DNA of 49,793 bases from Acidobacteriaceae bacterium (GTDB lineage Bacteria > Acidobacteriota > Terriglobia > Terriglobales > Acidobacteriaceae). Position 1 is the first letter of the stretch. Each line of letters begins with the position of its first letter. The stretch spans positions 1 through 49,793 of the forward strand of contig JAOAPG010000327.1 in NCBI GenBank assembly GCA_025462785.1. The letters run 5' to 3'. This document shows positions 7,818-45,083 of this stretch, piece by piece. Both the position numbers and the translations under genes were made by a program. The notes beneath the pieces were generated by a model that had not been told where the DNA came from, did not search any database, and worked only from the letters and a program-made list of their open reading frames with translations.

Positions 7818-8051
7818 TTAAATAGATTTTACGCGTAGGCCTTGGTAGAGGTTTGCAAATTGAGGTAACGAAGTTCGCCTCAATGTGACACAGGAGCTGC
7901 ACGTCTGTGATCCTACGTTTCTAGTTGTACTCGCTTTCTTTACCTAAGGTGGATGCTGCTGTAGCCATGCCTTTCAAGCCTTTGTTCACTCGGACGATGA
8001 ATTGTTAACGCTCATCGAGTCACATAGGATGCATTCACTGGAGAGTGGCAA

Positions 8052-15664: not shown

Positions 15665-15838
15665 CAACATCGGCCAGAACCTGATTGTGCGAGTTCTCTT
15701 TGATATTGCCAAGCTCCTAAAACATCGTTCGAACGTCGGCTGCACGCACTTGTAAGTCCTATGTCGCAAGGACAATTGATTCTCCGGATGAATTGTTCTA
15801 GCGAATCTCAGTTATTAGCCTCGTAACCAAGGCCTTTT

Positions 15839-16244
15839 ATGATCACGCTGAATAACGCAAGAGAAATAATTTCCGCCGCCGAGAAGCGGGCATTGGAAAT
15901 CGGTCAACCGATGAACATAGCCGTAGTCGACTCCGGAGCCAACTTAATAGCACACGCACGAATGGATGGAGCTTGGATCGGCAGTATAGATATCTCCATC
16001 AACAAAGCATTTACAGCCAGAGCACTCGACATTTCCACAAAAGAGCTGGCTACCCACTCTCAACCCGGTAAACAGTTTTTCGGGATTCACGCCTCGAAAC
16101 ATGGCCGAATCATGATTTTTGCTGGCGGCATCCCCCTGAAACAAGGTGGCAAGGTGATCGGAGCAGTTGGCGTTTAGCGGCGGTTCTGGCGACCAGGATC
16201 AAACTGTGCCCGAAGCAGGCGCAGCCGCTTTCAAACCGAGTTGA
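15839..16244 (+). pseudogene. GlcG/HbpS-like (DUF336) heme-binding protein gene with a +1 frameshift near the 3' end
   Basis: The ORF ends ...KVIGAVGV then TAG at 16175-16177. The next frame reads SGGSGDQDQTVPEAGAAAFKPS to TGA at 16242-16244, which is the conserved GxxGVSGG continuation. Removing one T from GTTT (16172-16175; the T run is 16173-16175) restores the frame. Confidence 0.7.
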
Positions 16245-17897: not shown

Positions 17898-17947
17898 TCG
17901 CTTCCTTTACCAGATTTATTAACGTGAATCATGAACGGGAGGAAACA

Positions 17948-18511
17948 ATGGACAACTTACAAGGACTCAGAGTCGCAATTCTCATAACCGATGGTTTCGA
18001 ACAAATTGAGATGGTCCGGCCTCGCCAGGCACTCGACCAGGCGGGCGCGGAAACCAGCATTGTATCTCCGAAGACCCAGCATGTGCGCGGCTGGGACTTT
18101 ACGGAGTGGGGAGAAGAATTTCCCGTGGACATCGCTCTCGATCGGGCTGATCCAAATAACTTCGACGCATTGTTGCTACCAGGTGGAGTAATGAATCCCG
18201 ATACACTCAGGATGCTGCCCAAGGCTGTTGCTTTTGTAAAATCCTTCTTCGATTCCTCCAAACCGGTAGCAGTGATCTGCCATGGCCCGTGGACCGTGAT
18301 TGAAGCGGGCGCTGCAAAAGGCCGGCGTATCGCTTCATGGACGTCCTTAAAAACCGATCTTCGCAACGCAGGTGCGGAGTGGATCGACCAGGAAGTGGTA
18401 ACCGACGGAAACATGGTTTCAAGCCGCAAGCCTGATGACATTCCGGCGTTCAACCGGGGAATGATCGAGCTATTCAGCACGATAGCGGGTCAAGCGCGCA
18501 AGGTAGCCTGA
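17948..18511 (+). CDS. DJ-1/PfpI family protein (type 1 glutamine amidotransferase-like)
   Basis: VAILITDGFEQIE...DALLLPGG...KPVAVICHGPW nucleophile-elbow motif. GGGAGG precedes the ATG at 17948. Confidence 0.9.
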   Translation: MDNLQGLRVAILITDGFEQIEMVRPRQALDQAGAETSIVSPKTQHVRGWDFTEWGEEFPVDIALDRADPNNFDALLLPGGVMNPDTLRMLPKAVAFVKSFFDSSKPVAVICHGPWTVIEAGAAKGRRIASWTSLKTDLRNAGAEWIDQEVVTDGNMVSSRKPDDIPAFNRGMIELFSTIAGQARKVA

Positions 18512-20377: not shown

Positions 20378-20713
20378 TCACTGCGGAGGCATGGCCACCT
20401 GCATGATATGAATCACATTCGTGTCGGGATCAACGTGCACTACAAGCGCAACGTGCTGATCCTCTTTACCTTGTAAAGCGTCCGGGTTGCCAATTTTATA
20501 GCTCTGATTGTCCGTATCGCTTACGAAAGTCTTACCGTCATGGCTGACCTTACCCGACATATTTTGTGCGGACGATGTACTAGTTTGGCTGCCCTGTGTG
20601 TTTTGCTTCATCTGGCTGTTGTCTTGTTGCGTATTGCCCTGGCTGCCCTGGGTCTGAGCGGCCACACATAACGACAGCCCCAGCACTAAAATAATCGACA
20701 TAACTGCTTTCAT
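20378..20713 (-). CDS. hypothetical small secreted protein (Gln/Ser/Thr-rich N-terminal half)
   Basis: Start set at MKAVMSIILVLGLSLCVAAQ (signal-like) with GGGAG upstream. 111 aa. Confidence 0.6.
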   Translation of the reverse strand: MKAVMSIILVLGLSLCVAAQTQGSQGNTQQDNSQMKQNTQGSQTSTSSAQNMSGKVSHDGKTFVSDTDNQSYKIGNPDALQGKEDQHVALVVHVDPDTNVIHIMQVAMPPQ

Positions 20714-20866
20714 AAAATGCTCCCTCGCGAGATCAAAAAGGATCACATGCGACCTCTAATACAGCCTAGCCAGCGGCCCCATCCAAAACAATTCTTCGCG
20801 AGCATAAAGCACTGTTAGGACTTAAGGATTAATGAAAAACGAGACCACAAATGCTTGTAGGACGGC

Positions 20867-22753: not shown

Positions 22754-23554
22754 CTACGCGACGGCGGCCCTCGCCGACTTTGCGGGTTCGGTCGAACGGT
22801 TCGGTATTCCACGGGGAACGCTTGCCCGAATCTTCGTACCATTGCTTCCGGAAGTGATTTCAAGTCTTCCATGAAAATCTTCGATTCGCTCCCGCATCCC
22901 ACATAATCCAACTCCCGTCCCGGTTCCTGTCTGCTTGAACTGATTCAACAGCCGGGCGGGAATCCCCTTGCCGTAGTCCTCCACTTCGAGCATCACCATG
23001 CGCTGATCTGACTGCAAACGAACATCCGCCAACCTGCTGTCAGAGTGTCTGTACATGTTGGTAAGGCTCTCTTGCAGCACTCGGAACAGCGCAGCCTCAA
23101 TGGAACGCCTCAACCTTCCTATCTGCGAATCCAGGTGTAATCTCACCTCAATATTGCTGCGCTTGGCGAAACCCTCGACATACCAGCGAGCCGCGGAAGA
23201 GAATCCGGATTCATGCAGCAAGGGGGGATACAAGAGATATGAAGTTGTGCGAATATCCTGAAGCGCTTGATCAGCGAGAGCATTCGTTTGCGCAAACACT
23301 TCCGATATCGACTGACCAGATTTGAGGCGCTCTTCAAGAGATGCAATCTGGAGTTTGAGCGCCGTCAGTGTCTGCCCTGTGCTGTCGTGCAAATCGCGAG
23401 CAAGACGCCGACGCTCTTCGTCCTGCACACGAAGAAGGCGCGCGGACAGGCTACGTAATGCGTTTGTACGTTGTTCTATCAAACATTCGAGTTCGTTATG
23501 AGTGTGCTTGCGATCTACCTGCTGCATGTGACCGGCGCCATGTTTTACGGGCAT
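22754..23554 (-). CDS. soluble HisKA_3-type histidine kinase (no sensor or TM domain)
   Basis: EERRRLARDLHDSTGQTLTAL H-box and a HATPase_c C-terminus (GTGVGLCGMRERIEDFHGRLEI). Only 266 aa. Confidence 0.85.
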   Translation of the reverse strand: MPVKHGAGHMQQVDRKHTHNELECLIEQRTNALRSLSARLLRVQDEERRRLARDLHDSTGQTLTALKLQIASLEERLKSGQSISEVFAQTNALADQALQDIRTTSYLLYPPLLHESGFSSAARWYVEGFAKRSNIEVRLHLDSQIGRLRRSIEAALFRVLQESLTNMYRHSDSRLADVRLQSDQRMVMLEVEDYGKGIPARLLNQFKQTGTGTGVGLCGMRERIEDFHGRLEITSGSNGTKIRASVPRGIPNRSTEPAKSARAAVA

Positions 23555-24025
23555 AACAGATTTCCTTTTTAAGAATTTCGTGATTCCACAAATCGTTTTA
23601 GCTCAAGCTGCCGTTCTGTTAGTAGCTTCTGATGACAAGTACGTACGGGATCTCGTGACGTCAACAGGGCGCACAGTTCCCAACCTGCATTCTCGCCTTT
23701 GTTTTGCGCATAGAACTCTAAGATCGAAAGGTACAGAACGTCGATTTTCTTGGACAGAGGCCCCCCGAGTTACGATCTCGCACGTCTCAGTGCACAGCTT
23801 TCACTTTCTTAATAAAAGCTGTTGAGTGGTATCAAATGGGAACGACCTTCTGAACCGAGATGCTAATGACCGAGTATGCCTATAACAATTGCTCGTGAGG
23901 GTGAACTGAAACTTGGACGGGGAGCTTACAAAACGATTGCTCTTTTGATGGAGAGTTCTCTACGACCTTAGCACTACCAGAGTCTCAGGATTTGAAAACC
24001 CACGGTAGGAGAGGGTCGGTCACGG

Positions 24026-24472
24026 CTATGCTGTGGCCGCGGGAATCGCTGTCTTCAACCAGTTTTCCATTTGCTCCTGATTCACTAAGCCAGCCTGCTG
24101 CACAACCGGCCTCCCGCCATAGAGCACAACAAAATTAGGTATACCGCGCACGTTAAAGCGAGCGGCCAGTTCCGGATGAGCTTCCGTATTGACCTTCACT
24201 ACGACCGCTTTGCCAGCCATGTCTTTAGCAGTTTGAGAAACCTCGGGCGCAGCCATGCGACAAGGACCGCACCACTCAGCCCAGAAGTCTACCAATACTG
24301 GAACACGAACATTTTGGATGATGTCGCCAAACAAAGCAGGATCAACTTCTAGCGGCTCATCTATGGGTCGTAAAGGCGACTTGCAGAAACCGCAACGGCC
24401 CGTGTCGACTAGGTGCTTCACTGGAATGCGGTTTTTACGGCCACAGACCTTGCAGGTTCGAATCACGAACAT
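24026..24472 (-). CDS. trxC: thioredoxin 2-type thioredoxin with N-terminal zinc-finger
   Basis: CKVCGRKNR...CGFCKSPL (two CxxC) followed by VLVDFWAEWCGPCRM. The start at 24472 is preceded by GGAGGAG. The longer ORF to 24565 was rejected. Confidence 0.85.
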   Translation of the reverse strand: MFVIRTCKVCGRKNRIPVKHLVDTGRCGFCKSPLRPIDEPLEVDPALFGDIIQNVRVPVLVDFWAEWCGPCRMAAPEVSQTAKDMAGKAVVVKVNTEAHPELAARFNVRGIPNFVVLYGGRPVVQQAGLVNQEQMENWLKTAIPAATA

Positions 24473-24492
24473 AAGCTCCTCCGAGCTGCTTT

Positions 24493-24524
24493 GCAATGGC
24501 GCAGCAGCAATGGCGCAGCAGCAA
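24493..24524. repeat. 14-nt tandem duplication (gcaatggcgcagca x2 plus partial third copy) in the trxC leader
   Basis: Copies lie at 24493-24506 and 24507-24520, with gcaa at 24521-24524. This is about 20 nt upstream of the trxC start on the minus strand. Confidence 0.9.
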
Positions 24525-24837
24525 CATCGATCCGATGGCCTAGCCCCTTTTTGTGTCTTTTGCAATTGTCGGATGTAAATCTATCTTATGTCGGTTGTCC
24601 CGGTAAATTGCTAACGGCAAAATCGTTCTCCATGTGGACCTGTAGTTCTGTACTGCTGCGAAAGTCGTATACGAGTCTTCCACCCCAACCTGATGTCAGC
24701 GTAATCATGATTTCAGAGTCTTACTTCCTCCTCACGGAGAATTGTTGCGAACGTGACCACTCGCTACCATCCGAGATGAGATGGCACCGCGGTTGTCTAA
24801 CCTCGCGCACGCAACGAGATTAAGTAAGCAAAGTGCT

Positions 24838-24874
24838 GGGGCCAGTGGACAAAGCAAGAACGTCTACTGGCCCC
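24838..24874. promoter_or_regulatory. perfect 9-bp inverted repeat (ggggccagt N19 actggcccc) upstream of the HdeD-like gene
   Basis: Arms lie at 24838-24846 and 24866-24874, ending 48 nt before the ATG at 24923. Function unknown (operator or leader hairpin). Confidence 0.4.
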
Positions 24875-24922
24875 ACATCTCCTCAATTCAAGGAACAAAT
24901 AACTACTCTTAACGGGGGGAAT

Positions 24923-25504
24923 ATGGCCACGAGTCCGATGTTCTTCGAATTTGACAGGCTTCGCCACAGATGGGGCTGGCTGCTGACACTTGGGATCGTG
25001 ATGGTTTTTCTCGGCACCGTGGCCCTGTTCATGATCCCAGCAGCCACCCTTGGCACCGTGTTGGTACTGGGTTGGTTATTGGTCATCAGTGGGATTGTTG
25101 AGGCAGTTCAGGCATTTCGAGTACGACGTTGGGGAGGCATGTTCCTTCATCTAATTGGAGGAATTCTCGGCATCCTAGTCGGCCTACTTGTTGTAACTCA
25201 TCCCGTTGCCGGTGCCTTGGCGTGGACCATGCTCTTCGCCTCTTTCTTCACAGTGATCGGCATCTTCCGATTGGTAACGGCGATTAGGCTCAAGTTTCCG
25301 AACTGGGGTTGGGCCGTTTTTGATGGCGCGGTGACTCTTGCGTTGGGAATTCTACTTTGGGTCCAGTGGCCGTGGTCAGCTCTTTGGTTTTTGGGGTTGG
25401 CTGTCGGAGTTTCGCTAATTCTGCGCGGGTGGTCCTATATAATGTTCTCTATCGCCGTTCGCAACTTAGCTGTACCGCCAATCCCGATTAGGCAAGCAGC
25501 TTAG
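24923..25504 (+). CDS. HdeD-family (DUF308) membrane protein
   Basis: Repeated TM pattern WGWLLTLGIVMVFLGTVALF...LLVISGIVEAVQAF...LIGGILGILVGLLV. GGGGGGA precedes the ATG at 24923. Confidence 0.8.
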   Translation: MATSPMFFEFDRLRHRWGWLLTLGIVMVFLGTVALFMIPAATLGTVLVLGWLLVISGIVEAVQAFRVRRWGGMFLHLIGGILGILVGLLVVTHPVAGALAWTMLFASFFTVIGIFRLVTAIRLKFPNWGWAVFDGAVTLALGILLWVQWPWSALWFLGLAVGVSLILRGWSYIMFSIAVRNLAVPPIPIRQAA

Positions 25505-26776
25505 TCATGTCTGTGCCGGCGAGGCGTATACGATTGCTGCTATCCCATCATACTTTGCAAGGAGATCCTGTTTATACTCGACAAGAGTAAGCTCTACTCC
25601 ATGCAACCGTGCAATTTCAGTAATCTCATCAACTACGTTTTCAACCTGGAGAAGCGCTAACCCGCAGAACGGGCATTCTCCACCTTTTAGCGATACATAG
25701 TGGTGCTGTCTGCAGACAAATCCCTTTTCCTGCAAATTTTCGGCGACAAGCAGCTTTCGAAGTACAAAAAGGTTAAGAACATTGATCACGTCGGGGAGAC
25801 CCGAAACCATGTCCTGCCCTGGCCGATAGTTACTCAATGCTTCAACAGCCTGCGTTTCTCTCTGGGCTTTGTGGTTTCGAACTATGGCCTCAATCACTTC
25901 CTTCCGGTCTCGCTGGTCCGCGTCGGGAGAGTCGTTAATGCGGCCAATGATCTTTTCTTTTACAGCCTCGTGAAGATACTCTTCGAGAAGGTGCAAAACT
26001 CGACCTTCACCCATTAATACCAGCGCGTCGAATAACCGATCGTTGTAGAGACGATACACGTGAAGAGCAGTCAACTTGAGATGCCATTGCAAGTGGGTCA
26101 AGCGATGCATTTGAACCTTGCCAGGTATCGATTTATCGACTGAGTCGGTGGGAACAAAGGATTTCACCCGATCCATTTCTTCTAGGTGGCCCAAGTCATA
26201 AGTAAGAAATCGACTCTCTTCTTTGGAGACTTCGACGAACAGAACTCTTTCATTCTTTTCCAGAACGGCTTCCAGCGGCACAATGTAAGGATCAACGTCG
26301 ATAATCAGAGCATCAGTAGATCGAAGGGATAGCCTGATTACTCGATTAAGTTCCTCGCCAGATTTAAAGATGATGAGAGAACGTAGTCCTTCGGGCACGA
26401 AGTACTCGCTCAAAAAACTTTCTATCTCCTCTATGTCAAAATTGAGGTTCTCCTTTTGTTGACGGGAGAGTTGGTCAATAAAATCGTGCCGTTCGTCCAT
26501 TGCCTTTCGCTTGAGTGAGCGGAAGGATCGAAGCAACGCCTTTTCTTTAGGCACGACTTTTTGCGGATCAAATTGTAGGTACAAGCTGATCACAGGCTGG
26601 TTATATTCCGCCCTGACGAGCGCCTTTATGTCCTCTCGTGATACCCGGTTTTCTTGTCCTAGTGCCTGGCGCAAAGAAAGCGCCTGTTCGACGTGTTTTT
26701 CTCGTACTTTCCGGGTTGGTTCGTGGAGTGCAGCGATCTGTCCTTCTCTTTCCGTAACAGTCTCTCTGACGTCCAT
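25505..26776 (-). CDS. archaeo-eukaryotic release factor (eRF1/Pelota/Vms1)-like protein, bacterial baeRF/VLRF1-type (tentative)
   Basis: The 423-aa ORF with a GAAGGA RBS is solid. The family call rests on an N-terminal PVISLYLQFD segment, a central PGKVQ Gln-loop candidate and a C-terminal domain with a CxxH...CPFC knuckle followed by VENVVDEITEIARLHGVELTLVE. This is by-eye recall only. Confidence 0.5.
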   Translation of the reverse strand: MDVRETVTEREGQIAALHEPTRKVREKHVEQALSLRQALGQENRVSREDIKALVRAEYNQPVISLYLQFDPQKVVPKEKALLRSFRSLKRKAMDERHDFIDQLSRQQKENLNFDIEEIESFLSEYFVPEGLRSLIIFKSGEELNRVIRLSLRSTDALIIDVDPYIVPLEAVLEKNERVLFVEVSKEESRFLTYDLGHLEEMDRVKSFVPTDSVDKSIPGKVQMHRLTHLQWHLKLTALHVYRLYNDRLFDALVLMGEGRVLHLLEEYLHEAVKEKIIGRINDSPDADQRDRKEVIEAIVRNHKAQRETQAVEALSNYRPGQDMVSGLPDVINVLNLFVLRKLLVAENLQEKGFVCRQHHYVSLKGGECPFCGLALLQVENVVDEITEIARLHGVELTLVEYKQDLLAKYDGIAAIVYASPAQT

Positions 26777-26877
26777 AGTCCTTCACCATCGCCGTCAATG
26801 GCTGTGCTTACAACACCAACATTTCTTACTGCCGGGAGAACAAATTTAGACAATTTAGAAATCGCGGCTCGGCCAGC

Positions 26878-27072
26878 TCAATCGGATGGAACGATCGTCA
26901 CCATCACTTTTTGGCCAACAGTCCAACCCTGCTGGTTGGGCAGGCGCAGCTCGGCATATAAGGGCTCCGCCCCTTGTACGCATACAGTCACTCTCTCCTG
27001 GTGATCTGAGTAGAGGCCAGGACGGGAAATTTCACTTATGTTCCCCTGAAGCTTCACACTATTCACATTCAC
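26878..27072 (-). CDS. hypothetical small protein (64 aa)
   Basis: GTG start preceded by GAGGTGG. Lies between the PAS kinase and the release-factor-like gene. No family recognised. Confidence 0.45.
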   Translation of the reverse strand: MNVNSVKLQGNISEISRPGLYSDHQERVTVCVQGAEPLYAELRLPNQQGWTVGQKVMVTIVPSD

Positions 27073-27301
27073 TTCACCACCTCAACTTTCGCTTACTTCG
27101 GCGAACGCCCTTTCCGGATCGGCCCAATTTCTAGACGAGAAGAAACATACCCACCTCGATCAATTGAGCTTTTCTTGGTGAGACTCGATCTTAATTAGTG
27201 GATGGCCCTCCAACAATTCTTCAAGAGCATGAACAGGTACTATGCACTGCCGAATAGAAGAAGATGAAGCACGAGTCAAACACCGGGCTAGCACCATAGG
27301 G

Positions 27302-28507
27302 CTAGATACTCTCTGAAATTTTCCCGTGTCCGATATGTGATCTTCCCTTCCCAGAATCCCCCGCAAGAGTGGGCGGTAGAGGGACGAGGACTAAGACCTG
27401 CGTTCCTCGCCCGGGTTGACTGTGAACGAGAAGCTTTCCACCCAAACGCTCTGCGCGGTTGCGCATACCGAATAGGCCAAAGCCAGCTCGCCCCGTGGGC
27501 AGAGAAGTCGGCACGAATCCTTGACCATCATCGATTACACCCAAACGCATTTCCCCGGGCCGATAACTCAGCTCTACGCGCACGGTGGTAGCTCGCGCGT
27601 ACTTTAACGCATTGAGCAGTGCCTCCTTGCCCATCTGCACCAGCTCACGCCTCATTCCTGTCGAAAGGGGGCGTGGCTCTTTTTGGAGCCAGAGTTCCAC
27701 TTTGACCGGAGTTCCCTGAAAGAGTTGGTTGGCTAGAAACGACAAAGCGACAGATGGGTCAGCCTGCTCGAATGATTCACTACTCAGCGACCAGATTGCG
27801 CGCCGGACTTCTTTGATGCTGTTCCGAGCAACATTAAGCGCATGGCGAAGCCCCCCTAGAATCTGCGTTGACCCGCTGTCAACGTCGCATTCAGCGGCTT
27901 CCAAGTGAAGCACGACCCCATTTAAGCTCTGTAGCAGGGTGTCGTGAATCTCGGCGGCCATTCGCCCGCGTTCCTTCGATACTTCGTCATTATGACGCAT
28001 CAGGCTTCTTTGCTTGTACTCAGTGATGTCGATAAGCGTAGCAATCGAACCCGCGGCCCGACAGCCGGCAGGCTTGATAGGTGAAGCGCTGAATAAGATG
28101 TGTGAAGAACTGCTGTCGAGTCGTACCAATTGGCATTCTTTACGAATGACAGACTCTCCACGCATAGCTCTCACGAAGGGCCATTCTGAGACGGGAACAA
28201 AACGGTTCTCGAGATCAAGCATTTCACCCCAGATGGTCGGTGCTATGTCAAGCTTTTGGCCTTCTGGGTCTACTTGCGCCAACTGTTTTGCCGCCCAATT
28301 AGCAAACACGATTTTGCCTTGTGAGTCCGAAACGACGATGCCCTCTGATACACTTTGCAAGATGGCCCCAGAGATCGCGACCCAATCGGCGCCTGGAAAG
28401 TGTGTTACTGCACTCGCAAACGGAAACCGATTGGGCTCAACTGCAAGATACGCCTCGGGCAAAGACTGCTTGGTTTGTTGCGTTCGGGAGGAAGTTCTTG
28501 CCTTCAT
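27302..28507 (-). CDS. PAS-domain sensor histidine kinase (HisKA_3 / NarL-partner type)
   Basis: PAS-like segment ILQSVSEGIVVSDSQGKIVFANWAAKQL, H-box RMAAEIHDTLLQSL, and HATPase segment GFGLFGMRNRAERLGGKLLVHS. AAGGGAG is the RBS. Confidence 0.9.
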   Translation of the reverse strand: MKARTSSRTQQTKQSLPEAYLAVEPNRFPFASAVTHFPGADWVAISGAILQSVSEGIVVSDSQGKIVFANWAAKQLAQVDPEGQKLDIAPTIWGEMLDLENRFVPVSEWPFVRAMRGESVIRKECQLVRLDSSSSHILFSASPIKPAGCRAAGSIATLIDITEYKQRSLMRHNDEVSKERGRMAAEIHDTLLQSLNGVVLHLEAAECDVDSGSTQILGGLRHALNVARNSIKEVRRAIWSLSSESFEQADPSVALSFLANQLFQGTPVKVELWLQKEPRPLSTGMRRELVQMGKEALLNALKYARATTVRVELSYRPGEMRLGVIDDGQGFVPTSLPTGRAGFGLFGMRNRAERLGGKLLVHSQPGRGTQVLVLVPLPPTLAGDSGKGRSHIGHGKISESI

Positions 28508-28645
28508 GAATTACTCCCTTAGCCACACTGTCTTGAAATATCTTCAGCACTTCTAAGCAGTTGGCACAAATAGCATTCTGTCGCGATCGTTTTCAACCCA
28601 AAAAGTACGTTGGTTTCTGGTCCGAGATTTAACTTTGATTGAAAT

Positions 28646-29299
28646 TTAGGCCGCAGCGGTCACGTCCATGCGGACCAGTCCTCTTTTCGCGGCAATATTT
28701 ATCGCTTCTGTTCGGCCAGTAACTTTCAGTTTCTCCAGAATATGGGTAACGTGTACTTTGACCGTTGCCTCGCTGATTTCTAACGCTACTCCGATTTCTT
28801 TGTTGCTTTTTCCTGCCGCCACGGCACGTAGTACTTCCATCTCACGTCTGGTTAATTCCTGGTCACCTACCCGCTTAGCGAGTTTGGCGCCCACACCACT
28901 TGGGATCCAAGTCCTGCCAGCACTAACCTGTCGAATACATTCCACCAGCTCATCAACGGGAGCATCCTTGAGGAGGTAGCCTTGTGCACCGGCCCTCATA
29001 GCCCGGTAAATGTCTTCTTCACTTTGATAGCTTGTCAGGATGACAAGGTGTGCAGTAGGATCCTTTTCACAGATGGCAACCACGGCCTCGATACCATCCA
29101 TAGTGGGCATCCGAAGATCCATTAACGCGACGTCGGGACGTTCAGTGCAGAACTTATCTACAGCCTCACGACCGTTAGCCGCCTCGGCAACCACCCTCAT
29201 GTCAGTCCGGCGCTGAACCAAGGAGACCAGTCCCTCCCTCACTACTGGATGATCGTCGGCGACCAAGACTGTGATCGACTTTTGGGGGCTAGCGTTCAT
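28646..29299 (-). CDS. NarL/LuxR-family response regulator
   Basis: ITVLVADDHPVVREGL...DVALMDLRMP receiver plus LTRREMEVLRAVAAGKSNKEIGVALEISEATVKVHVTHILEKL HTH. Start chosen at MNASPQ (29299). The ORF is open to 29524, so the start is uncertain. Confidence 0.88.
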   Translation of the reverse strand: MNASPQKSITVLVADDHPVVREGLVSLVQRRTDMRVVAEAANGREAVDKFCTERPDVALMDLRMPTMDGIEAVVAICEKDPTAHLVILTSYQSEEDIYRAMRAGAQGYLLKDAPVDELVECIRQVSAGRTWIPSGVGAKLAKRVGDQELTRREMEVLRAVAAGKSNKEIGVALEISEATVKVHVTHILEKLKVTGRTEAINIAAKRGLVRMDVTAAA

Positions 29300-29740
29300 T
29301 TGGAGGACTCTCGCGGGGGAAACGTGGACGTCTGGGAGATTGAACTCGCCATATGACGGTATGGCAGTATGACTTCCAGGCAAAACGTCGTTTCGATCCA
29401 AAACACCCTGGATCTTGATTTCTGCAGCACTCTTTACGGATCTGCTGCGTGCTCCCACCAAATGTCTTCCGCCTCGGGGCCGACGATCAATGATTCTTTG
29501 GGTTGATAGCATGACACTCTCCATATGGTTTTTGGAAGTTCTGATCGTGATTATTTAAAGGAAGCTGAGTGGAGCAATTTCAGCGGAGCGATTTTCTCCG
29601 CCATTAATCGGTTAAGCGAGTCGTAGTGCCAGATAAGCTTGGTCCGCATTTGAGTTATATCAGCTGAGTTATCCATATCACCCTCGTTAGTCTGAATCTG
29701 TCACCAATCGGACACCCAAAAACTAAATTTGCGAATGCCG

Positions 29741-30445
29741 TTAACGCGGTGTTTTGGCGGCATCGGCAGGTCTGTTGTGCGTAGCTTCACTCTCACTTAG
29801 GGCTGCGTCCCGCATAGGAGAATTGATGCTCAAGGCCACGTTTTGGACATCGTCAATGACGCCCGACTTTCTGAAACGTTTCATAAGTATGTTGACCCGC
29901 TGCCGGGTGGTTCCAATCATGTCCGCCAATGTTTGCTGGGTGAGTTTCGGGACGTGCTCATCTTGGGTTTTCGCGGTCTGAGTAAGCAGGAGGAGCACAC
30001 GAGCGAGGCGTTCTTCGCCCGAACTTAACAGAACGTTAACCAGATCCTCCTGAATTTGTGAATTCCGCTTAAGCAGATAATCCACAAAGGAATAGCCAGT
30101 AACGCCTCCTGCTCGTACAGCACGGATCATTACCAGGCGATCGATTTTGATAGCGCGGACTGGCGTGAGAGCGATTGCAGTGTGAAAGCGGGAAGGTTGA
30201 TCTGATGAAATACAGCTCTCCCCCACAAGGTGCCCGGCGTTTAGAAGACCAATGATCGCTTCTCTTCCCTGTTCAGATATGACCGTGAGTTTAATGACGC
30301 CCTTTTCTATATAGAAGATCGAGTCGCTGCGGTCTCCATGGGAAAAGATCACCTGCTTCTTTGCGAAGTGAAGCGGCTTTTTGTCGATTCCCTCTTTCGC
30401 GAGGAGAGCATCAATATTGAAGGGACCGGACGATGTTGGACGCAT
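29741..30445 (-). CDS. Crp/Fnr-family transcriptional regulator
   Basis: cNMP-binding-like segment IFSHGDRSDSIFYIEKGVIKLTVISEQGREAIIGLL..GHLVGE and HTH segment LTQQTLADMIGTTRQRVNILMKRF. Confidence 0.9.
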   Translation of the reverse strand: MRPTSSGPFNIDALLAKEGIDKKPLHFAKKQVIFSHGDRSDSIFYIEKGVIKLTVISEQGREAIIGLLNAGHLVGESCISSDQPSRFHTAIALTPVRAIKIDRLVMIRAVRAGGVTGYSFVDYLLKRNSQIQEDLVNVLLSSGEERLARVLLLLTQTAKTQDEHVPKLTQQTLADMIGTTRQRVNILMKRFRKSGVIDDVQNVALSINSPMRDAALSESEATHNRPADAAKTPR

Positions 30446-30634
30446 TTTGCACTTCCCATCAATGGGCTAAATAATACGCCGACTTAGGGGAGTACGCTTC
30501 TGATACAAATTAATGCACTCATATGCACTTTCATACTCGTCGATACGTTCTGGGTAGTAACATTCGCAGGATACATCCGGAGCGAATGGCACCTGTATGA
30601 TGGTGCAAAGCGGAACTGAAAGAGTCGCCACTCA

Positions 30635-30937
30635 ATGAAGGACAGAACCAAAAAGCCAGCAGCTTATCATTTCCCTGCCGTTCCGCTTACAGCCGTCAGC
30701 GCTAACCGAAAGGGTAAGCACCGAAAAATAGTTTCCAACATCTTAAGTGACCTGGAGAGGCTCGACGAATTCAGCGCACTGAGGATAAACCTGGCGGAAG
30801 CGGGAGTGAAAAAAGCCGACCTTCGTTCAGCCATTCACCGGGCTGCGAAGAGTAGAAGAATCCCACTGCTCACAACTTCGGACGAGGCTCACCTGTATGT
30901 GTTTCATCGACCGGCAGCAAACAAGATGGGACGCTAA
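30635..30937 (+). CDS. hypothetical small basic protein
   Basis: 100-aa ORF with a weak RBS and no family recognised. Confidence 0.4.
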   Translation: MKDRTKKPAAYHFPAVPLTAVSANRKGKHRKIVSNILSDLERLDEFSALRINLAEAGVKKADLRSAIHRAAKSRRIPLLTTSDEAHLYVFHRPAANKMGR

Positions 30938-30958
30938 GGCTAGGTGTTCATGAGATGC

Positions 30959-31207
30959 TCATGACGCTGGAATTCCGGCGATCTTCAGAATTTTCCGTCG
31001 TAACTGCGGCGTCTCTATCAGCTCCAAAATGATTGCGTGCTGGAGACTGAGATCTTTCGCCAGCCTCGCGAATATCTTCCTCTGGAGCTTTGGCTTTCCA
31101 GCTATGCTCCGGAACACGTCGGACCGGAAAGCGGCATCCTGCTGAATTCGGCGTACGATGCGCTGAATCGTTTGTGTCTTCTTGAGTGAGATAACCTGAA
31201 AATGCAT
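30959..31207 (-). CDS. hypothetical small protein
   Basis: 82-aa ORF with no clear RBS and no family recognised. Confidence 0.3.
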   Translation of the reverse strand: MHFQVISLKKTQTIQRIVRRIQQDAAFRSDVFRSIAGKPKLQRKIFARLAKDLSLQHAIILELIETPQLRRKILKIAGIPAS

Positions 31208-31488
31208 GGCCGCCGGAGCTCTAGAGAAATACTCCTTTCCAAGCTTCTCATTTTTCGGATAAAGATTCGGCTTACCATGGTAATACTTTGTTCGGCGATC
31301 CTAGGTCTGCTGTCGTACAAATAGCTTCAACGCAAGAGCCATCACTTTCTAATCTTCCCTACCCAATTTGGACCTCGCCCAACTGAGAATTGTTATCGCG
31401 GAGTGCCGCCGTTACGCTAGACAAATAGCAGACAATAAAAAGGCAATTCGTACTCGGCACAACTTATAACCAGCTTTCCGGAGGGATC

Positions 31489-32220
31489 ATGTCAGCGCAA
31501 AGATCAAGTCAACTCTCAACTTCATCGCAAAGTTCTTCACCACAAACATCCAGGGGAGATCGGCGAAACCAACAGACTGCTTTGAGCCGTCAAAGCTCTC
31601 TGTCTTCTCTCCCTTCAGTTCTACTAAATCCTTTTGGCTTCTTCGACGACGATCCGTTTTCCGTGATCCGCAGAATGCAGCGAGAATTGAATCGAGCCTT
31701 CTCTCAAAGCGGCGCAACCAGTTCTTCGCGCGGGGATGATCTTAGCGATGTGGTATGGGTCCCACCCGTCGAAGTAGCAGTTCGTGATAACAATTTCGTT
31801 GTGTCTGCGGAATTACCGGGCCTCTCTGACGAGGACGTAACTGTTGAAATCAGAGACGACGCCATTGTGATTCAGGGCGAGCGCCAAGTTGAACAAGAAG
31901 AAGATCAAGGCGGCATCCGACGAACGGAACGCAGATACGGACGTTTTTATCGAGAGATCCCTTTACCTGATGGGGCCGATCCAGAGCAAGCCACGGCCGA
32001 GATCACGAATGGTGTCTTGCAGATTACCGTTCCCATCTCACAGGCTCAAACAAACACACGTCAAATTCCCGTACAGTCGACGACTTCGGCCCAGCCGGAT
32101 TCATCCCGTACCGGCGCTCAAACATCTTCAGCTTCGGGCTCGTCGCAATCAGCTTCGTCGCAATCGTCGGAGCAAAGGTCTTCATCAACTCAGGGTTCCT
32201 CAGGACAGAAAGCCGCCTGA
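31489..32220 (+). CDS. Hsp20/alpha-crystallin family small heat-shock protein with Ser/Gln-rich tails
   Basis: VWVPPVEVAVRDNNFVVSAELPGLSDEDVTVEIRDDAIVIQGER...RRYGRFYREIPLPDGADPEQATAEITNGVLQITVP. GGAGGG is the RBS. Confidence 0.9.
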   Translation: MSAQRSSQLSTSSQSSSPQTSRGDRRNQQTALSRQSSLSSLPSVLLNPFGFFDDDPFSVIRRMQRELNRAFSQSGATSSSRGDDLSDVVWVPPVEVAVRDNNFVVSAELPGLSDEDVTVEIRDDAIVIQGERQVEQEEDQGGIRRTERRYGRFYREIPLPDGADPEQATAEITNGVLQITVPISQAQTNTRQIPVQSTTSAQPDSSRTGAQTSSASGSSQSASSQSSEQRSSSTQGSSGQKAA

Positions 32221-32321
32221 GTTCGCTGCAGAACATGCACGTTCCTCCTATGCTCATTAGGAGGAACGTTGCACATTGCTGCATTTTTAATGGATGAGTC
32301 GGGGCAGGCATAAGCAAACAA

Positions 32322-33005
32322 ATGAAAGCTCACCGGGAGTCGCCGGCGATCTTGTTCGACTTGGATGGGACCCTGGTCGACAGTGTCTATCAACATGTTC
32401 TCGCGTGGCGACAGGCGCTGGAGTGTTGCGGCATAAAGCTGGCGGCATGGCGTATTCATCGCCGCATCGGAATGAGTGGAGGGTTGTTCGCAAGCGCGTT
32501 GCTGAGAGAGACGGGACGTCCAGTGTCGGCCGAGTTGGCGGAGGAATTGCAGCAGCGTCATGCCGAAGCGTATACGCAGCAGATCAGGGAGGTGCAGCCT
32601 CTTCCCGGCGCAAAGGATCTACTCGCGTTCTTGAACGAAGTCGGGGTTCCCTGGGCCATTGCTACCAGCGGCCGGGGGAAGTTCGCGCTGGAAACTATTC
32701 GTGTTCTTGAACTCGGCCGAGAAGTGCCACTTATCACCCGCGATCAAGTTCAGCACGCCAAACCTGATCCCGACCTGTTTCTAGCAGCAGCAGATCGTCT
32801 GGGAGTGGATTTTCGCACCTCGGTGGTGGTGGGAGACAGTGTTTGGGATTTGCTTGCGGCGCGGCGCGCGAATGCGCTTGGCGTGGGCTTGCTTTCAGGG
32901 GGCTATGGTCAAGACGAACTGGAGCGTGCGGGAGCTTACCGCGTCTACCAAGACCCTCTGGATTTTTTACAACATCTGGATGAGATCGGCATTCGTATCG
33001 AATAG
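32322..33005 (+). CDS. HAD-superfamily hydrolase (phosphoglycolate phosphatase-like)
   Basis: AILFDLDGTLVDS motif I, WAIATSG motif II, VVVGDSVWDLLAA motif IV. Confidence 0.85.
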   Translation: MKAHRESPAILFDLDGTLVDSVYQHVLAWRQALECCGIKLAAWRIHRRIGMSGGLFASALLRETGRPVSAELAEELQQRHAEAYTQQIREVQPLPGAKDLLAFLNEVGVPWAIATSGRGKFALETIRVLELGREVPLITRDQVQHAKPDPDLFLAAADRLGVDFRTSVVVGDSVWDLLAARRANALGVGLLSGGYGQDELERAGAYRVYQDPLDFLQHLDEIGIRIE

Positions 33006-40142: not shown

Positions 40143-40949
40143 TCAGGACACTTTCTTTTCAGACTGCGGCGCTTCAAGTTCTCTAAGCAGTTGTTCCCTT
40201 ACCCTATCTGCGATTCGCGGTACTTCGTCCGGCGGCACGTCGTAAATCTTCGCAACTTCTTCCTTCGAAAATCCTTCGACAGCAAAAAGCTCAAACACGA
40301 TTCGGTCCCGCTCCGGCACATGGGAAAGGGCTCGCACAATCTGGCTTACTTCTTCATCTCTTTCAAGCTGCTTCTCCGGATCGTCCTCGTCCACCGGAGC
40401 ATTGAACTCGCGTGGCGGAATTTCGCCGTCATCCAGATCTTCTGGAAGCCACGGCTCGCCTTCAACATCGGCGGTGATAGGCTGCTCTTCCAGAGTACTG
40501 AGTTCTTTTTGCTGTAGAGTCTCCAAGCTCCTTCGGCGGGCATCCGTCGAATGTCTTTTGCGCAAGTAGTTTTCAAGGATTTCATTGGCGATCCGATACA
40601 GCCATTGCTCAAGGGTTAAATCCGGTGGTTTCTTTTCGTAGCTGTCATACGCTCGTAGGACAACTCGATCGAGAATATCGTCACTGGTGTAGACGGGAGT
40701 CCGGATTTGCAAATCCAGATACGCAATCCGCAAGCGCCGTTTTATGTATGTCTTTAGAGGACTTAGGAGAGGAATAATCTCGTGGAAAAATTCCTGTTTG
40801 TTTTGAACTTTATCAGTTTGAGCCTTACCTGATTGAGGTTGCTGACCGCTGGCGAGCGCTGCCAGTTGTCCTTCTTTTTGTCGCAATGCTTCTGATTGCT
40901 GGCTTCTTGCGTTTGCCGGCACGGGCCCTGATTTCTCTGTCCCGTTCAA
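40143..40949 (-). CDS. sigma-70 family (ECF-like) RNA polymerase sigma factor with Gln-rich N-extension and acidic sigma2-sigma4 linker
   Basis: Region-2-like DDILDRVVLRAYDSYEKKP...WLYRIANEILENYLRK and region-4-like IVFELFAVEGFSKEEVAKIYDVPPDEVPRIADRVREQL. TTG start preceded by GGGAGGAG 5 nt upstream. Confidence 0.8.
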   Translation of the reverse strand: MNGTEKSGPVPANARSQQSEALRQKEGQLAALASGQQPQSGKAQTDKVQNKQEFFHEIIPLLSPLKTYIKRRLRIAYLDLQIRTPVYTSDDILDRVVLRAYDSYEKKPPDLTLEQWLYRIANEILENYLRKRHSTDARRRSLETLQQKELSTLEEQPITADVEGEPWLPEDLDDGEIPPREFNAPVDEDDPEKQLERDEEVSQIVRALSHVPERDRIVFELFAVEGFSKEEVAKIYDVPPDEVPRIADRVREQLLRELEAPQSEKKVS

Positions 40950-41300: not shown

Positions 41301-43235
41301 CTAGGCCGACTTCCGCTCGTCTACATCGACATACTCAGCGTCCACAACCCCTTCCTCTTTCTTTGCCTGACCATCAGCGCCTGCGGCCGGGCCCGCACCT
41401 GCTGTTGGTCCTGCGCCGGCACCACCTTGTGGCTGACTGGCTTTGTACATCTGCTCCGCTAATTTGTGCGAAACCTGGGTCAGGCGCTCGCGCGCTCTAT
41501 CCATCTGAGTTTTGTCATCGGAATTGAGCGCGGTTTTGGCGTCGGCAATTGCACTCTCAACTTCGCCTCGCTCCGATCCGGAGATCTTGTCGCCATTTTC
41601 GCGCAGCATCTTCTCTACGCTGTAGACGAGAGAATCCAGTTGGTTCTTAGCCTCGATCTGTTCGCGTCTGGCTTTATCTTCTTCGGAATGCGCCTCGGCT
41701 TCCTTCGCCATCCGATCGACATCTTCTTTGCTCAGACCCGAAGAGGAAGTAATAGTGATCTTCTGGTCTTTGCCAGTGGCCCTGTCCTTCGCGTGAACGT
41801 TGAGAATACCGTTCGCATCAATATCGAATGTCACTTCGACCTGAGGCACGCCACGCGGTGCAGGCGGAATGCCGGTCAACTGGAATTTTCCGAGGGTGCG
41901 ATTCTGGGTGGCCATAGGGCGCTCCCCCTGTAACACGTGAACCTCAACCGAGGTCTGATTATCAGCCGCGGTTGAGAATGTCTCCGTCTTCTTGGTTGGA
42001 ATCGTCGTGTTCCGCGGAATCATTTGAGTCGCGACGCCACCCTGGGTTTCGATGGCAAGTGTGAGCGGAGTCACATCTAGCAGCAGCAAATCTTTCACGT
42101 CGCCCTGGAGTACGCCACCTTGGATAGCTGCTCCAACCGCAACTACCTCGTCCGGGTTGACGCTCTTGTTGCCTTCTTTGCCGAAGAGGTCCTTTACGAG
42201 ACGCTGAATTCGCGGCATGCGGGTTTGTCCACCCACCAGCACTACTTCGTTGATCTTGCTCGCATCAACACCCGCGTCCTGCATGCATTGTTTACTAGGA
42301 GGAACCGAGCGCTGGATCAGGTCCTCCACCATAGACTCGAGTTTTGCGCGAGTCAATTTTTTCACCAGGTGCTTCGGACCGCTGGCGTCGGCGGTAATGA
42401 AGGGAAGATTGATTTCGGTCTCCATCGTGGTGGAGAGTTCGATCTTGGCGCGTTCGGCCGCGTCGCGCAGGCGCTGCAATGCCATCTCGTTCCCTTTTGC
42501 GCGCAAATCAAGCCCTTCATCCTTCCTGAACTCATCAATCAGCCAGTCGACAATTCTCTGGTCAATGTTGTCGCCACCGAGGTGAGTATCGCCATTCGTG
42601 GCTTTCACTTCGATGACACCGTCACCGACTTCGAGGATGGAGATATCGAACGTCCCACCCCCGAAGTCGTAGACGGAGATGGTCTCATCTTTCTTCTTAT
42701 CGAGACCGTAAGCCAGGGCTGCTGCCGTCGGTTCATTGATGATGCGCTTCACATCCATTCCCGCGATGCTCCCCGCGTCTTTGGTCGCCTGTCTCTGAGC
42801 GTCGTTGAAGTAGGCAGGGACCGTGATGACGGCATCGTTTACCCTCTCACCCAAGTAGTCTTCAGCCGCTTTCTTCAGCTTCTGCAAGATCATGGCGGAG
42901 ATCTGCTGCGGGGTGTACTTTTTCCCTTGAGCAACAATCAATACATGGTCCCCTTCGGGTTCGATTTTGAAGGGAACCATCTTCAACTCTTCTCGCACTT
43001 CCTCATAGCGGCGCCCCATGAAACGTTTGATGGAATAAATAGTGTTTTCAGGATTTGTAATCGCCTGCCGCTTGGCGACTTGTCCCACAAGGATTTCTCC
43101 TGTCTTGGTAAACGCAACGACTGACGGGGTTGTGCGTCCGCCCTCTTCATTAGGAATGACCTTGGCTTCCCCTCCTTCCATCACGGATACCACTGAATTT
43201 GTGGTGCCGAGATCAATGCCGATTATCTTTGCCAT
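41301..43235 (-). CDS. dnaK: molecular chaperone DnaK (Hsp70)
   Basis: [16 protein letters not shown]..., [22 protein letters not shown] and full-length Hsp70 architecture. 644 aa. Confidence 0.98.
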
Positions 43236-44114: not shown

Positions 44115-45083
44115 ATGAAAGCCGCATTAGATGTTGCGTTGCCCCTGCTGGCAATTTCGCTCGCAGGTTGGCTGGGATTTGCGTCAATGGTTAATGCCAG
44201 CACCGCGGATACAGCTTCGGATACCAAGACCACGACTCAAACGCAGGGGCGACCTAGCCTTGAAAGACAGCGAAAGAATGCTGAGCAGCAGGCACGGCCC
44301 GACATTGAGAAACAGCGGAAGGAAACCGAGCAGCAAGCAAAGAAGAACCTGGATCAGGACGCTATAGACGCGATCAGGGAAACTGAAAAAGCTATCAATG
44401 CCATAGCTGCAAATAAAAATGACGAGGCTTTGGCAGCCATCGAACGTGCCACGGGAAAGATCAATATTCTACTTGCGCGCAACCCGGGGACCGCGCTTAT
44501 CCCAGTGGATGCGGAGGTCGATGTTCTCGACACGGCCCCGCAGGATTCTCAAGCTATTTTAGATATTGCAAAGGACGCGTCCAGGGCAGTTGATGACAAG
44601 GACTATCCGACAGCGCGCATCCTGCTCCATTCTTTAATGAGTGAAATTCACGTTCGAACTTATCACCTTCCACTCGCAACGTATCCGACCGCGCTGAAAG
44701 ATGCCGCTCGCTTACTGGACCAGAAGAAAAATCAAGAGGCCAGCGCTGTCCTCTTGACGGCCCTCAATACTTTGGTAGCGGTGGATCGAGTTACACCCAT
44801 ACCGTTACTTCGAGCACGTGACGCGATCAACGAAGCTCAAGCTCAGCGCCAGAAAGATAAGAACGCGGCTCAAAAGAGCTTGGAAATCGCAAAACACGAA
44901 TTAGAGCGGGCTAGAGAACTTGGGTACGCTGGTAAGGATGCAGAATATCCTTCTCTCAATGACCAGATCGCGAATCTTGAGAAGCAGCTCAATGCCGGTG
45001 GAGATGCGACTTCAGTCTTTGCCAAACTTAGAGAAAAACTCGACGCATTCGTCAAGCGTGCATCCGGAGACGATCATCATTGA
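44115..45083 (+). CDS. YfdX-family-like secreted protein
   Basis: Signal-like ALDVALPLLAISLAGWLGFASMVNA. Helical repeats (AIRETEKAINAIAANKNDEALAAIERATGKINILLAR...LPLATYPTALKDAARLLD...) resemble YfdX. Call made from memory only. Confidence 0.55.
   Translation: MKAALDVALPLLAISLAGWLGFASMVNASTADTASDTKTTTQTQGRPSLERQRKNAEQQARPDIEKQRKETEQQAKKNLDQDAIDAIRETEKAINAIAANKNDEALAAIERATGKINILLARNPGTALIPVDAEVDVLDTAPQDSQAILDIAKDASRAVDDKDYPTARILLHSLMSEIHVRTYHLPLATYPTALKDAARLLDQKKNQEASAVLLTALNTLVAVDRVTPIPLLRARDAINEAQAQRQKDKNAAQKSLEIAKHELERARELGYAGKDAEYPSLNDQIANLEKQLNAGGDATSVFAKLREKLDAFVKRASGDDHH

Follow-up and report, generated by a model that had tools for sequence, protein, structure and literature searches.

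Bacterial homologues of the archaeo-eukaryotic release factor 1 (aeRF1) have recently been shown to include a widespread class of hibernation factors, known as Balon. Three members, Balon of P. urativorans, Msmeg1130 of M. smegmatis and Rv2629 of M. tuberculosis (PDB 8rd8/8rdv/8rdw, 8v9j/8v9l and 8v9k), are structurally characterised and occupy the ribosomal A site, Rv2629 and Msmeg1130 are induced by hypoxia, and the published neighbours of Balon genes include Hsp20, HdeD, OsmY-type, RaiA and RtcB genes (PMC10901736). An earlier reading of the present DNA from its letters only (the sequence-only reading) held that the bacterial families have almost no experimental characterisation; these structures make that statement outdated for the superfamily. 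One bacterial family, baeRF-1 family 10 (PF18854), was reported to retain a conserved glutamine 'typical of the active families' (Burroughs and Aravind, 2019; PMC6514570). A literature search on family 10, PF18854 or Acidobacteria plus Balon returned nothing past these two papers. Here a family 10 gene, baeRF10, and its surroundings are described in a 49,793-nt stretch of DNA from an Acidobacteriaceae bacterium (contig JAOAPG010000327.1), the whole of which is called the window; the locus examined covers positions 25505-29524 of the minus strand, and the coordinates of all features are given in Table 1.

The 423-aa product of baeRF10 is a member of baeRF-1 family 10 and has the aeRF1 fold. Its score with the Pfam profile baeRF_family10 was 57 bits, the cut-off being 27.1 (E 3.5e-15; positions 1-142 of the 143 in the profile were covered). 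It has more than 250 homologues, at roughly 50-60 % identity, and the same domain is precomputed for homologues; in the Pfam match, the conserved glutamine and the three domains no family-level difference from the published description was found (PMC6514570). An AlphaFold2 model made with 35 homologues (predicted local distance difference test, pLDDT, 81; predicted template modelling score 0.70) has the full three-domain topology expected of aeRF1, in which a predicted N domain (residues ~57-165), an RNase-H-like M domain (~166-320) and a Pelota-like C domain (~321-423) follow a family-specific N-terminal extension (1-56) with a conserved EREx-I motif. The top Foldseek matches of the model were the Msmeg1130-Balon structures 8v9j/8v9l (E 3e-22, template modelling score 0.71-0.73, target-normalised), followed by aRF1, P. 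urativorans Balon, Rv2629, eRF1 and Pelota/Dom34, the aRF1 and eRF1 matches lying between E 1e-18 and 1e-12. Alignment of a 92-sequence profile with human eRF1 (the sequence of which is identical to 1dt9_A) gave a probability of 98.6 % and E 5e-15 over 377 columns and all three domains (hhalign). The relationship to the eRF1/Pelota fold, proposed by eye in the sequence-only reading, is thus found alike in Pfam, in the profile alignment and in the predicted fold.

That reading had offered the baeRF and VLRF1 families together, and only the first of the two stood. No VLRF1 Pfam match was obtained at E <= 0.1 and the GxuQ / GGxSQ loop is not kept, so membership of the Vms1/VLRF-1 group was rejected. 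Vms1/ANKZF1 shares with baeRF10 an M domain of the aeRF1 superfamily and a glutamine that is not preceded by Gly-Gly, but the N and C domains of baeRF10 are of the aeRF1/Balon type and the Vms1-specific domains are missing. A classical class-I release factor was rejected as well. aRF1 and eRF1 are homologous to baeRF10 over three domains and have an insertion at the same minidomain/zinc-ribbon site; in baeRF10, however, the NIKS loop falls in a deletion of the eRF1 alignment, the YxCxxxF motif (YLCDNKF) is aligned with a conserved IDxDPY, and GGQ is absent. The aRF1 model TIGR03676 scored 27.5 bits against a cut-off of 234.7. A search with PADLOC for an anti-phage defence role gave no match. 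With the family 10 profile, a second group of bacterial aeRF1 homologues (P0314-P0389, ~375-395 aa) reached 118-160 bits; its members have no N-terminal extension, carry a four-Cys ribbon (CxxC...CPxC) and show the loop type VPxKV+xxGWxGxxE+RxxRHIExH, mostly without the glutamine.

Hibernation is the favoured function in view of the closest relatives that have been characterised, the missing decoding and GGQ motifs, the conservation pattern and the setting among stress genes. We consider it slightly better than an even bet (about 0.55) that baeRF10 is a stress-induced, tRNA-mimicking factor that would occupy the A site independently of mRNA and would silence and protect ribosomes, as Balon, Msmeg1130 and Rv2629 do. 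The only significant match in a sequence search of the PDB was the Balon protein MSMEG_1130 (E 7e-4 with phmmer, 5.7e-10 with a profile), and NCBIfam returned near-full-length, sub-threshold matches to aRF1 and to three 'ribosome hibernation factor' families. Balon, like baeRF10, has the three-domain aeRF1 fold (it is the best structural match), possesses neither NIKS nor GGQ, bears a C-domain insertion at the matching site and is encoded among stress genes of the Hsp20, HdeD and OsmY type. The two share just 13-20 % identity and differ in that baeRF10 has the 56-residue extension, the conserved glutamine near the loop and Cys/His zinc ligands. No conserved His-Pro dipeptide, a possible reading of the Balon HP motif that contacts A1492/A1913, is present in the N-domain consensus. 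The M domain of Balon further has a lasso loop and a bL27 trap.

Conservation was assessed in 35 close homologues and in 45 diverse representatives clustered at 50 % identity. The three motifs quoted in the sequence-only reading were found at residues 61-70, 218-222 and 355-371. The first, PVISLYLQFD, forms the first beta-strand of the N domain and is aligned with MISLII (33-39) of eRF1; P61, V62, S64 and Y66 are invariant in the close homologues and kept in 41-44 of the diverse ones. The second, PGKVQ, lies at the end of the loop that joins strand 3 of the M domain to a long basic, His-rich helix (QxHRLTHLQWHLK), in the region that holds GGQ in eRF1. Its consensus is S-[RI]-P-[GNH]-[KHR]-[VA]-Q-R-H-R-L-T-H-L, and Gly-Gly was never present: glycine stands at -3 from Q222 in 19/45 representatives, and position -1 is Val in 21/45 and Ala, Gly or Ser in 12/45.

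This loop bears on the main alternative, favoured by the sequence-only reading and by Burroughs and Aravind, in which family 10 would be an active aeRF1-type peptidyl-tRNA hydrolase or rescue factor. Under stress it would move into the A site of ribosomes that have stalled or are idling, independently of a stop codon, Q222 releasing the chain either as a rescue step or as a clearing step before hibernation. Of the close homologues 33/35 retain Q222, as do 38/45 of the diverse ones; the distance from the conserved VP to the glutamine was 12 residues in 86/86 matched close homologues and in 13/15 matched representatives, and in the model the glutamine is predicted to lie at the start of the helix (which begins at residue 220) after the loop equivalent to GGQ. 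Family 10 was itself singled out as potentially active (PMC6514570), and with three domains and the zinc-ribbon site kept it is in the most aeRF1-like state among the bacterial families. The register of Q222 relative to eRF1 is ambiguous. A local alignment with a 35-sequence profile, which was not significant (E 0.29), placed it one residue from Q185 of eRF1; the significant global alignment with the 92-sequence profile placed it opposite A191, six residues from Q185 and inside the helix, with GGQ opposite S216-I217. Because the two alignments disagree, equivalence of Q222 to the GGQ glutamine is not claimed. The hydrolase is also disfavoured by the residues before the glutamine, which are K/H/R and V/A in place of Gly-Gly, and by the closest structures, which are the non-catalytic Balons. 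Moreover, Q222 is replaced by E, W, R or G in 6/45 representatives and gapped in one, and it is less conserved than the N-domain strand, which is nearly invariant, or the zinc ligands, which would be atypical of a catalytic centre. Active hydrolysis by family 10 is rated as rather unlikely; in the candidate catalytic loop put forward in the sequence-only reading the glutamine is conserved, no Gly-Gly precedes it and its register is ambiguous.

The third motif, CRQHHYVSLKGGECPFC, is inserted in the C domain and reads C355-x2-H358-H359...C368-P-F-C371, with predicted beta-strands at residues 352-355, 360-362 and 376-378. C355 and C368, together with G352, are invariant (45/45); residue 358 is His in 31 of the representatives and Asp in 8, residue 371 Cys in 33 and Asp in 9. 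The CxxH...CPFC insert, already noticed by eye, thus reads as an intact and conserved C-x2-H...C-x2-C/D zinc knuckle at the site of the eRF1 minidomain, which is the zinc-ribbon site of aRF1. The zinc ribbon of aeRF1 at this site is degenerate in most bacterial families (PMC6514570).

Four minus-strand open reading frames (ORFs) make up the locus in the order and with the gaps (138, 229 and 101 nt) given in the sequence-only reading, which had also named a PAS/HisKA_3 kinase, a NarL-type regulator and nearby Crp/Fnr and Hsp20 genes; Pfam confirmed these domains. Two of them, the 423-aa ORF and a 64-aa ORF upstream of it (here small64), are not chance reading frames, since they have more than 250 and 167 homologues respectively, and both are preceded by a Shine-Dalgarno-like sequence; for small64 this is GAGGTGG, 5 nt before the GTG start, in keeping with the ribosome-binding site proposed for it.

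No Pfam domain was found in any of the 167 homologues of small64, which by its conservation is a genuine orphan gene. It has 21 invariant residues, including a GAEPLYAELR core, and is 58-78 % identical across ~20 syntenic loci, where the neighbouring baeRF protein is just 51-59 % identical. The model (pLDDT 85) predicts a small beta-barrel of four strands; Foldseek gave nothing significant (best E 0.14, to the uL2 OB domain, Mop/TOBE and eS28), and a profile search of the PDB returned a weak repeat-lectin match alone. Pfam matches to TOBE, S1 and TRAM were isolated, at E > 0.06 and confined to single members; a TOBE-like reading was not adopted. Nor is small64 an obligate partner of baeRF10, as each occurs without the other: two loci, L045 (small64 at 5001-5213) and L046 (2477-2668), have regulator, kinase and small64 without a baeRF gene, and L001 has regulator, kinase and baeRF10 without small64. 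Because small64 also follows the kinase where baeRF10 is missing, its association with the regulator-kinase pair is tighter than that with the baeRF gene.

Before small64 lies a predicted sigma-70-like promoter that is conserved and carries a 21-bp upstream box. The box, TTCATnCTCACGAnGAATTGT, was found by k-mer sharing among orthologous upstream regions; the ~260-nt regions upstream of small64 could not be aligned as a whole with MAFFT. Its 3' end constitutes a -35-like TTGTnn; a spacer of 17-18 nt then leads to TAnnAT, so that the layout can be summarised as TTCATnCTCACGAnGAATTGT-N19-TAnnAT. The copy in the 229-nt gap (TTCATGCTCTTGAAGAATTGT, ~140 nt upstream of the small64 start) scored 27.9 bits with a position weight matrix. 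With up to three mismatches allowed, the window contains seven copies, where 0.17 would be expected; all seven have TAnnAT 17-18 nt further on, and they scored 20-32 bits against at most 11.8 in shuffled sequence. The box is conserved upstream of small64 orthologues in other Terriglobia genomes, where it also precedes DUF308, the orphan kinase, a VWA-like gene and Hsp20 (the Hsp20 copy was seen in L001). No description of it was found in the literature searched.

The layout suggests two transcription units, one comprising regulator and kinase and the other small64 and baeRF10, transcribed from the box promoter; this second unit may form part of a stress regulon. The gap between small64 and baeRF10 is 25-81 nt in relatives that have one, and the two ORFs overlap in L005. 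The 101-nt gap here contains no terminator-like site and shows no significant RNA structure (folding z-score -1.05). A generic scan for sigma-70 promoters and terminators over 24000-32500 found nothing in the three gaps, its counts being at or below shuffle expectation. The predicted 5' leader showed no thermometer-like structure (folding z-score -0.41), and Rfam detected no RNA family in the whole window at the gathering threshold. At the other end of baeRF10, the stop codon of the DUF308 gene (TAG, plus strand) directly abuts that of baeRF10 (TGA, minus strand) at 25502-25507, leaving no intergenic space, and no terminator-like site lies between these convergent genes; the corresponding gap in relatives is roughly 60-650 nt.

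Synteny was counted over non-duplicate loci, up to 25 from Acidobacteriota and 2-4 of Chloroflexota type. Upstream of baeRF10, the regulator (directly upstream on the same strand) was found in 19/25, the kinase in 16/25 and small64 in 15/25 acidobacterial loci, and none of the three in the Chloroflexota-type loci (0/2 each). Downstream, a convergent DUF308 gene was present in 19/24 and 0/4 loci respectively, and Trx2 within 5 kb in 8/24 and 4/4. The neighbourhood is thus conserved in related genomes, and the regulator-kinase-small64 block is specific to Terriglobia; the proposed link of the release-factor homologue to a signal-transduction pair holds within Terriglobia and fails outside them. 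In the Chloroflexota loci the baeRF10 protein is 38-42 % identical and Trx2 lies directly downstream on the same strand; both loci examined (L029 and L039) have a divergent DUF308 gene before baeRF10 and Hsp20 or cytochrome bd nearby. Because the linkage was found in both phyla, DUF308-baeRF10-Trx2 is regarded as the cross-phylum core. The NCBIfam score of the DUF308 protein was 44 bits for HdeD, under the cut-off, and that of Trx2 was 107 bits for TrxC. A Ca. Acidoferrum-type clade (L042 5008-6504, L043 4082-5398, L044 2902-4218) has CPFD for CPFC, and its N-terminus is rich in Gln; upstream in these loci lie a 72-aa ORF and a PilZ gene in divergent orientation, and the two-component system, DUF308 and Trx2 are missing.

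Within Terriglobia, baeRF10 lies inside a conserved stress island with Hsp20, the HdeD-like DUF308, Trx2, an OsmY-like BON protein and DnaK. Hsp20 is syntenic in most Terriglobia loci, the Crp/Fnr gene occupies the same position in L001, L003 and L045, and Hsp20, Crp/Fnr, a HAD hydrolase, the orphan HisKA_3 kinase and a VWA-like protein recur near the acidobacterial loci. The sequence-only reading had suggested stress-regulated ribosome rescue; the stress setting is upheld, and hibernation is better supported than rescue.

The linkage to DUF308 and Trx2 also bears on a third reading, in which baeRF10 would work off the ribosome, for example as a zinc- or redox-sensing regulator or an RNA-binding protein acting with Trx2 and the HdeD-like membrane protein. 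That the linkage crosses phyla, that the Cys/His knuckle is invariant and that the N-terminal extension with its EREx-I motif is peculiar to the family would all fit such a role. It is nevertheless highly improbable: the three ribosome-binding domains are full-length with Balon-like and eRF1-like geometry, the positively charged helix is conserved and has been tied to 23S rRNA contact (PMC6514570), and all characterised members of the superfamily act on the ribosome.

The regulator and kinase meet the definition of a NarL/FixJ-type pair, with REC and GerE in the former and HisKA_3 and HATPase_c in the latter (Pfam). The sequence-only reading had placed the end of the regulator gene at 29299, which is an internal ATG; the ORF reaches an ATG at 29524. 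The resulting extension of ~80 aa (29300-29524), which precedes the receiver domain, begins with a head, ME.VM...D.RPRGGR, that is conserved in several Terriglobia orthologues, and the longer form of 292 aa, with its start at 29524, is therefore probably the real one. NCBIfam scores of the regulator for NarL, MctR and MadR were 167-171 bits (NarL 171 against 250), all under the equivalog cut-offs, so no specific orthologue was assigned; the kinase gave matches of the NarQ/NarX/MctS type, likewise under cut-off. An orphan kinase of 266 aa, with HisKA_3 and HATPase_c but neither a sensor domain nor an adjacent regulator, is syntenic in relatives at 66-70 % identity and may feed into the same NarL-type regulator as a second input.

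Whether the pair controls the box can be argued either way. It may be a mere neighbour that controls something else, the box regulon (small64-baeRF10 included) being driven by the Crp/Fnr protein or by an alternative or extracytoplasmic function (ECF) sigma factor. In favour of this, Ca. Acidoferrum-type and Chloroflexota loci have baeRF10 and lack the pair, and other loci have the pair with small64 and lack baeRF10; the box shows no obvious 7-2-7 or 20-bp palindrome typical of NarL/LuxR-type dimers, the Crp/Fnr gene is equally syntenic, and an ECF-type sigma gene is present in the window. Yet the regulator stands directly upstream on the same strand in most acidobacterial loci, and the box abuts the -35 element as class II activator sites do. 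Furthermore, loci without small64 have the kinase stop ~63 nt from the baeRF10 start and no box by pattern scan, which implies read-through from the regulator-kinase operon. Independence of the pair is kept as a tentative alternative, somewhat short of even odds.

Under the favoured hibernation reading, the PAS/HisKA_3 kinase and the NarL-type regulator, possibly with Crp/Fnr, would control the box regulon, and small64 and baeRF10 would be transcribed from the box promoter as one unit apart from the regulator-kinase operon. Stress (oxygen or redox, heat, stationary phase) would lead to accumulation of the baeRF10 protein, which would bind ribosomes independently of mRNA, silence them and protect them. 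The basic, His-rich helix that follows the loop (QRHRLTHLxWHLK) would touch 23S rRNA close to the peptidyl-transferase centre, and the zinc knuckle may sit where the beta-hairpin of Balon meets EF-Tu.

Several points weigh against hibernation or against this scheme of control. The glutamine is kept with a fixed loop length, unlike in most baeRF families, and a conserved glutamine has been taken as a sign of possible hydrolase activity (PMC6514570). The zinc knuckle is intact in baeRF10, at a site where Balon has a plain beta-hairpin. The NCBIfam scores were 49 against 480 bits for MSMEG_1130, 21.3 against 320 for Rv2629 and 33.1 against 330 for AOC03_06830, so far under the curated equivalog cut-offs that baeRF10 is not an orthologue of the tested Balon proteins. 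Among the ORFs of the window that were compared with Pfam, none was RaiA/HPF, the commonest neighbour of Balon. The link from pair to box is drawn from adjacency, and in the Ca. Acidoferrum and Chloroflexota contexts the pair is missing. A bolder combination, in which family 10 would be the sole bacterial aeRF1 lineage that still hydrolyses peptidyl-tRNA, stress-induced, independent of stop codons, gated by the knuckle and Trx2, switched by the PAS kinase and NarL-type regulator in Terriglobia and stripping chains at entry into dormancy, is regarded as quite unlikely.

Table 1. Positions of the features discussed, numbered from the first nucleotide of the window.
Feature	Position	Strand	Remarks
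baeRF10 gene	25505-26776	-	423 aa; Pfam PF18854
PVISLYLQFD	26567-26596	-	residues 61-70
PGKVQ	26111-26125	-	residues 218-222
Predicted zinc knuckle	25664-25714	-	residues 355-371
small64	26878-27072	-	64 aa; GTG start; no Pfam domain
Histidine kinase	27302-28507	-	401 aa, soluble; Pfam PAS_4, HisKA_3, HATPase_c
Response regulator, NarL/FixJ-type	28646-29524	-	292 aa; Pfam Response_reg (REC), GerE; start probable
Crp/Fnr-family regulator	29741-30445	-	upstream of response regulator; Pfam cNMP_binding, HTH_Crp_2
Hsp20 small heat-shock protein	31489-32220	+	divergent from regulator block; Pfam HSP20
DUF308/HdeD-like membrane protein	24833-25504	+	convergent with baeRF10; Pfam DUF308; preceded by box 24725-24745 (+)
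Trx2/TrxC-type thioredoxin	24026-24565	-	N-terminal zinc ribbon; Pfam Thioredoxin, Zn_ribbon_Thio2
Box in 229-nt gap	27233-27213	-	upstream of small64
Promoter-like element	27188-27233	-	-35-like TTGTTG 27216-27211; 17-nt spacer; -10-like TAAGAT 27193-27188
Strong boxes	5705-5725(+), 7985-8005(+), 15776-15796(+), 20788-20808(-), 23885-23905(-), 24725-24745(+), 27213-27233(-)
Weaker box sites (starts)	277(+), 10423(+), 43997(+), 35241(-), 43926(-)
OsmY-like BON protein	5875-6540		box-preceded
DUF6600 protein	8052-9956		box-preceded
HbpS-like protein	15839-16177		box-preceded
Unassigned ORF	20378-20746		122 aa; box-preceded
Orphan kinase	22754-23554	-	box-preceded
ORF of 142 aa	22242-22670	-	
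DJ-1/PfpI protein	17924-18511		
ECF-type sigma factor	40143-40949	-	candidate regulator
DnaK	41301-43235		
YfdX	44115-45083		

The window as a whole is rich in stress and redox genes. Besides DnaK, YfdX, DUF4136, the OsmY-like BON protein and DJ-1/PfpI, it encodes an aldo-keto reductase, several zinc-dependent alcohol dehydrogenases, an aldehyde dehydrogenase, Trx2, a pyridine-nucleotide disulphide oxidoreductase, a HAD hydrolase and Hsp20. The ECF-type sigma factor (TIGR02937, 67.6 bits), which has an N-terminal extension of ~80 residues, is encoded ~350 nt downstream of the DnaK gene on the same strand and is a candidate regulator for some of the stress island. The 142-aa ORF has weak similarity to HTH_31/HTH_3 and a Cys-rich C-terminal part; it is 60 % identical to a syntenic ORF of L005 that lies between the orphan kinase and the VWA-like gene.

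Rv2629 and HspX, an Hsp20 protein, both belong to the DosR/DosS-DosT dormancy regulon of M. tuberculosis. We take the present locus to resemble this regulon in uniting a NarL-type regulator, a soluble HisKA_3 kinase, an aeRF1-like A-site factor and Hsp20 in one stress programme. The two also differ: here the sensor domain is PAS, not tandem GAF, the box does not resemble the palindrome of DosR, and the genes form a physical cluster where those of the DosR regulon are scattered; control by the regulator is suggested by adjacency.

The present analysis adds the regulon box, the regulator-kinase-small64 block confined to Terriglobia, the pattern of ligands in the zinc knuckle and the linkage to DUF308 and Trx2 across phyla; the fold, the family, the conserved glutamine and the theme of stress operons are already published. 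Family 10 is the most release-factor-like of the bacterial families because of its conserved glutamine and intact zinc-ribbon site, and the locus gives it a regulatory setting that is concrete and conserved. Its promoter box is defined and also stands before HdeD-like, OsmY-like and further stress genes, a candidate pair of sensor and regulator lies next to it, and a link to a zinc-ribbon thioredoxin extends across phyla. If baeRF10 is simply Balon-like, a known mechanism would be extended to an abundant soil phylum, which would be useful and not surprising. Two questions are made testable by this setting, namely whether any bacterial aeRF1 homologue has hydrolase activity and how ribosomes may be switched off in stressed soil Acidobacteriota.

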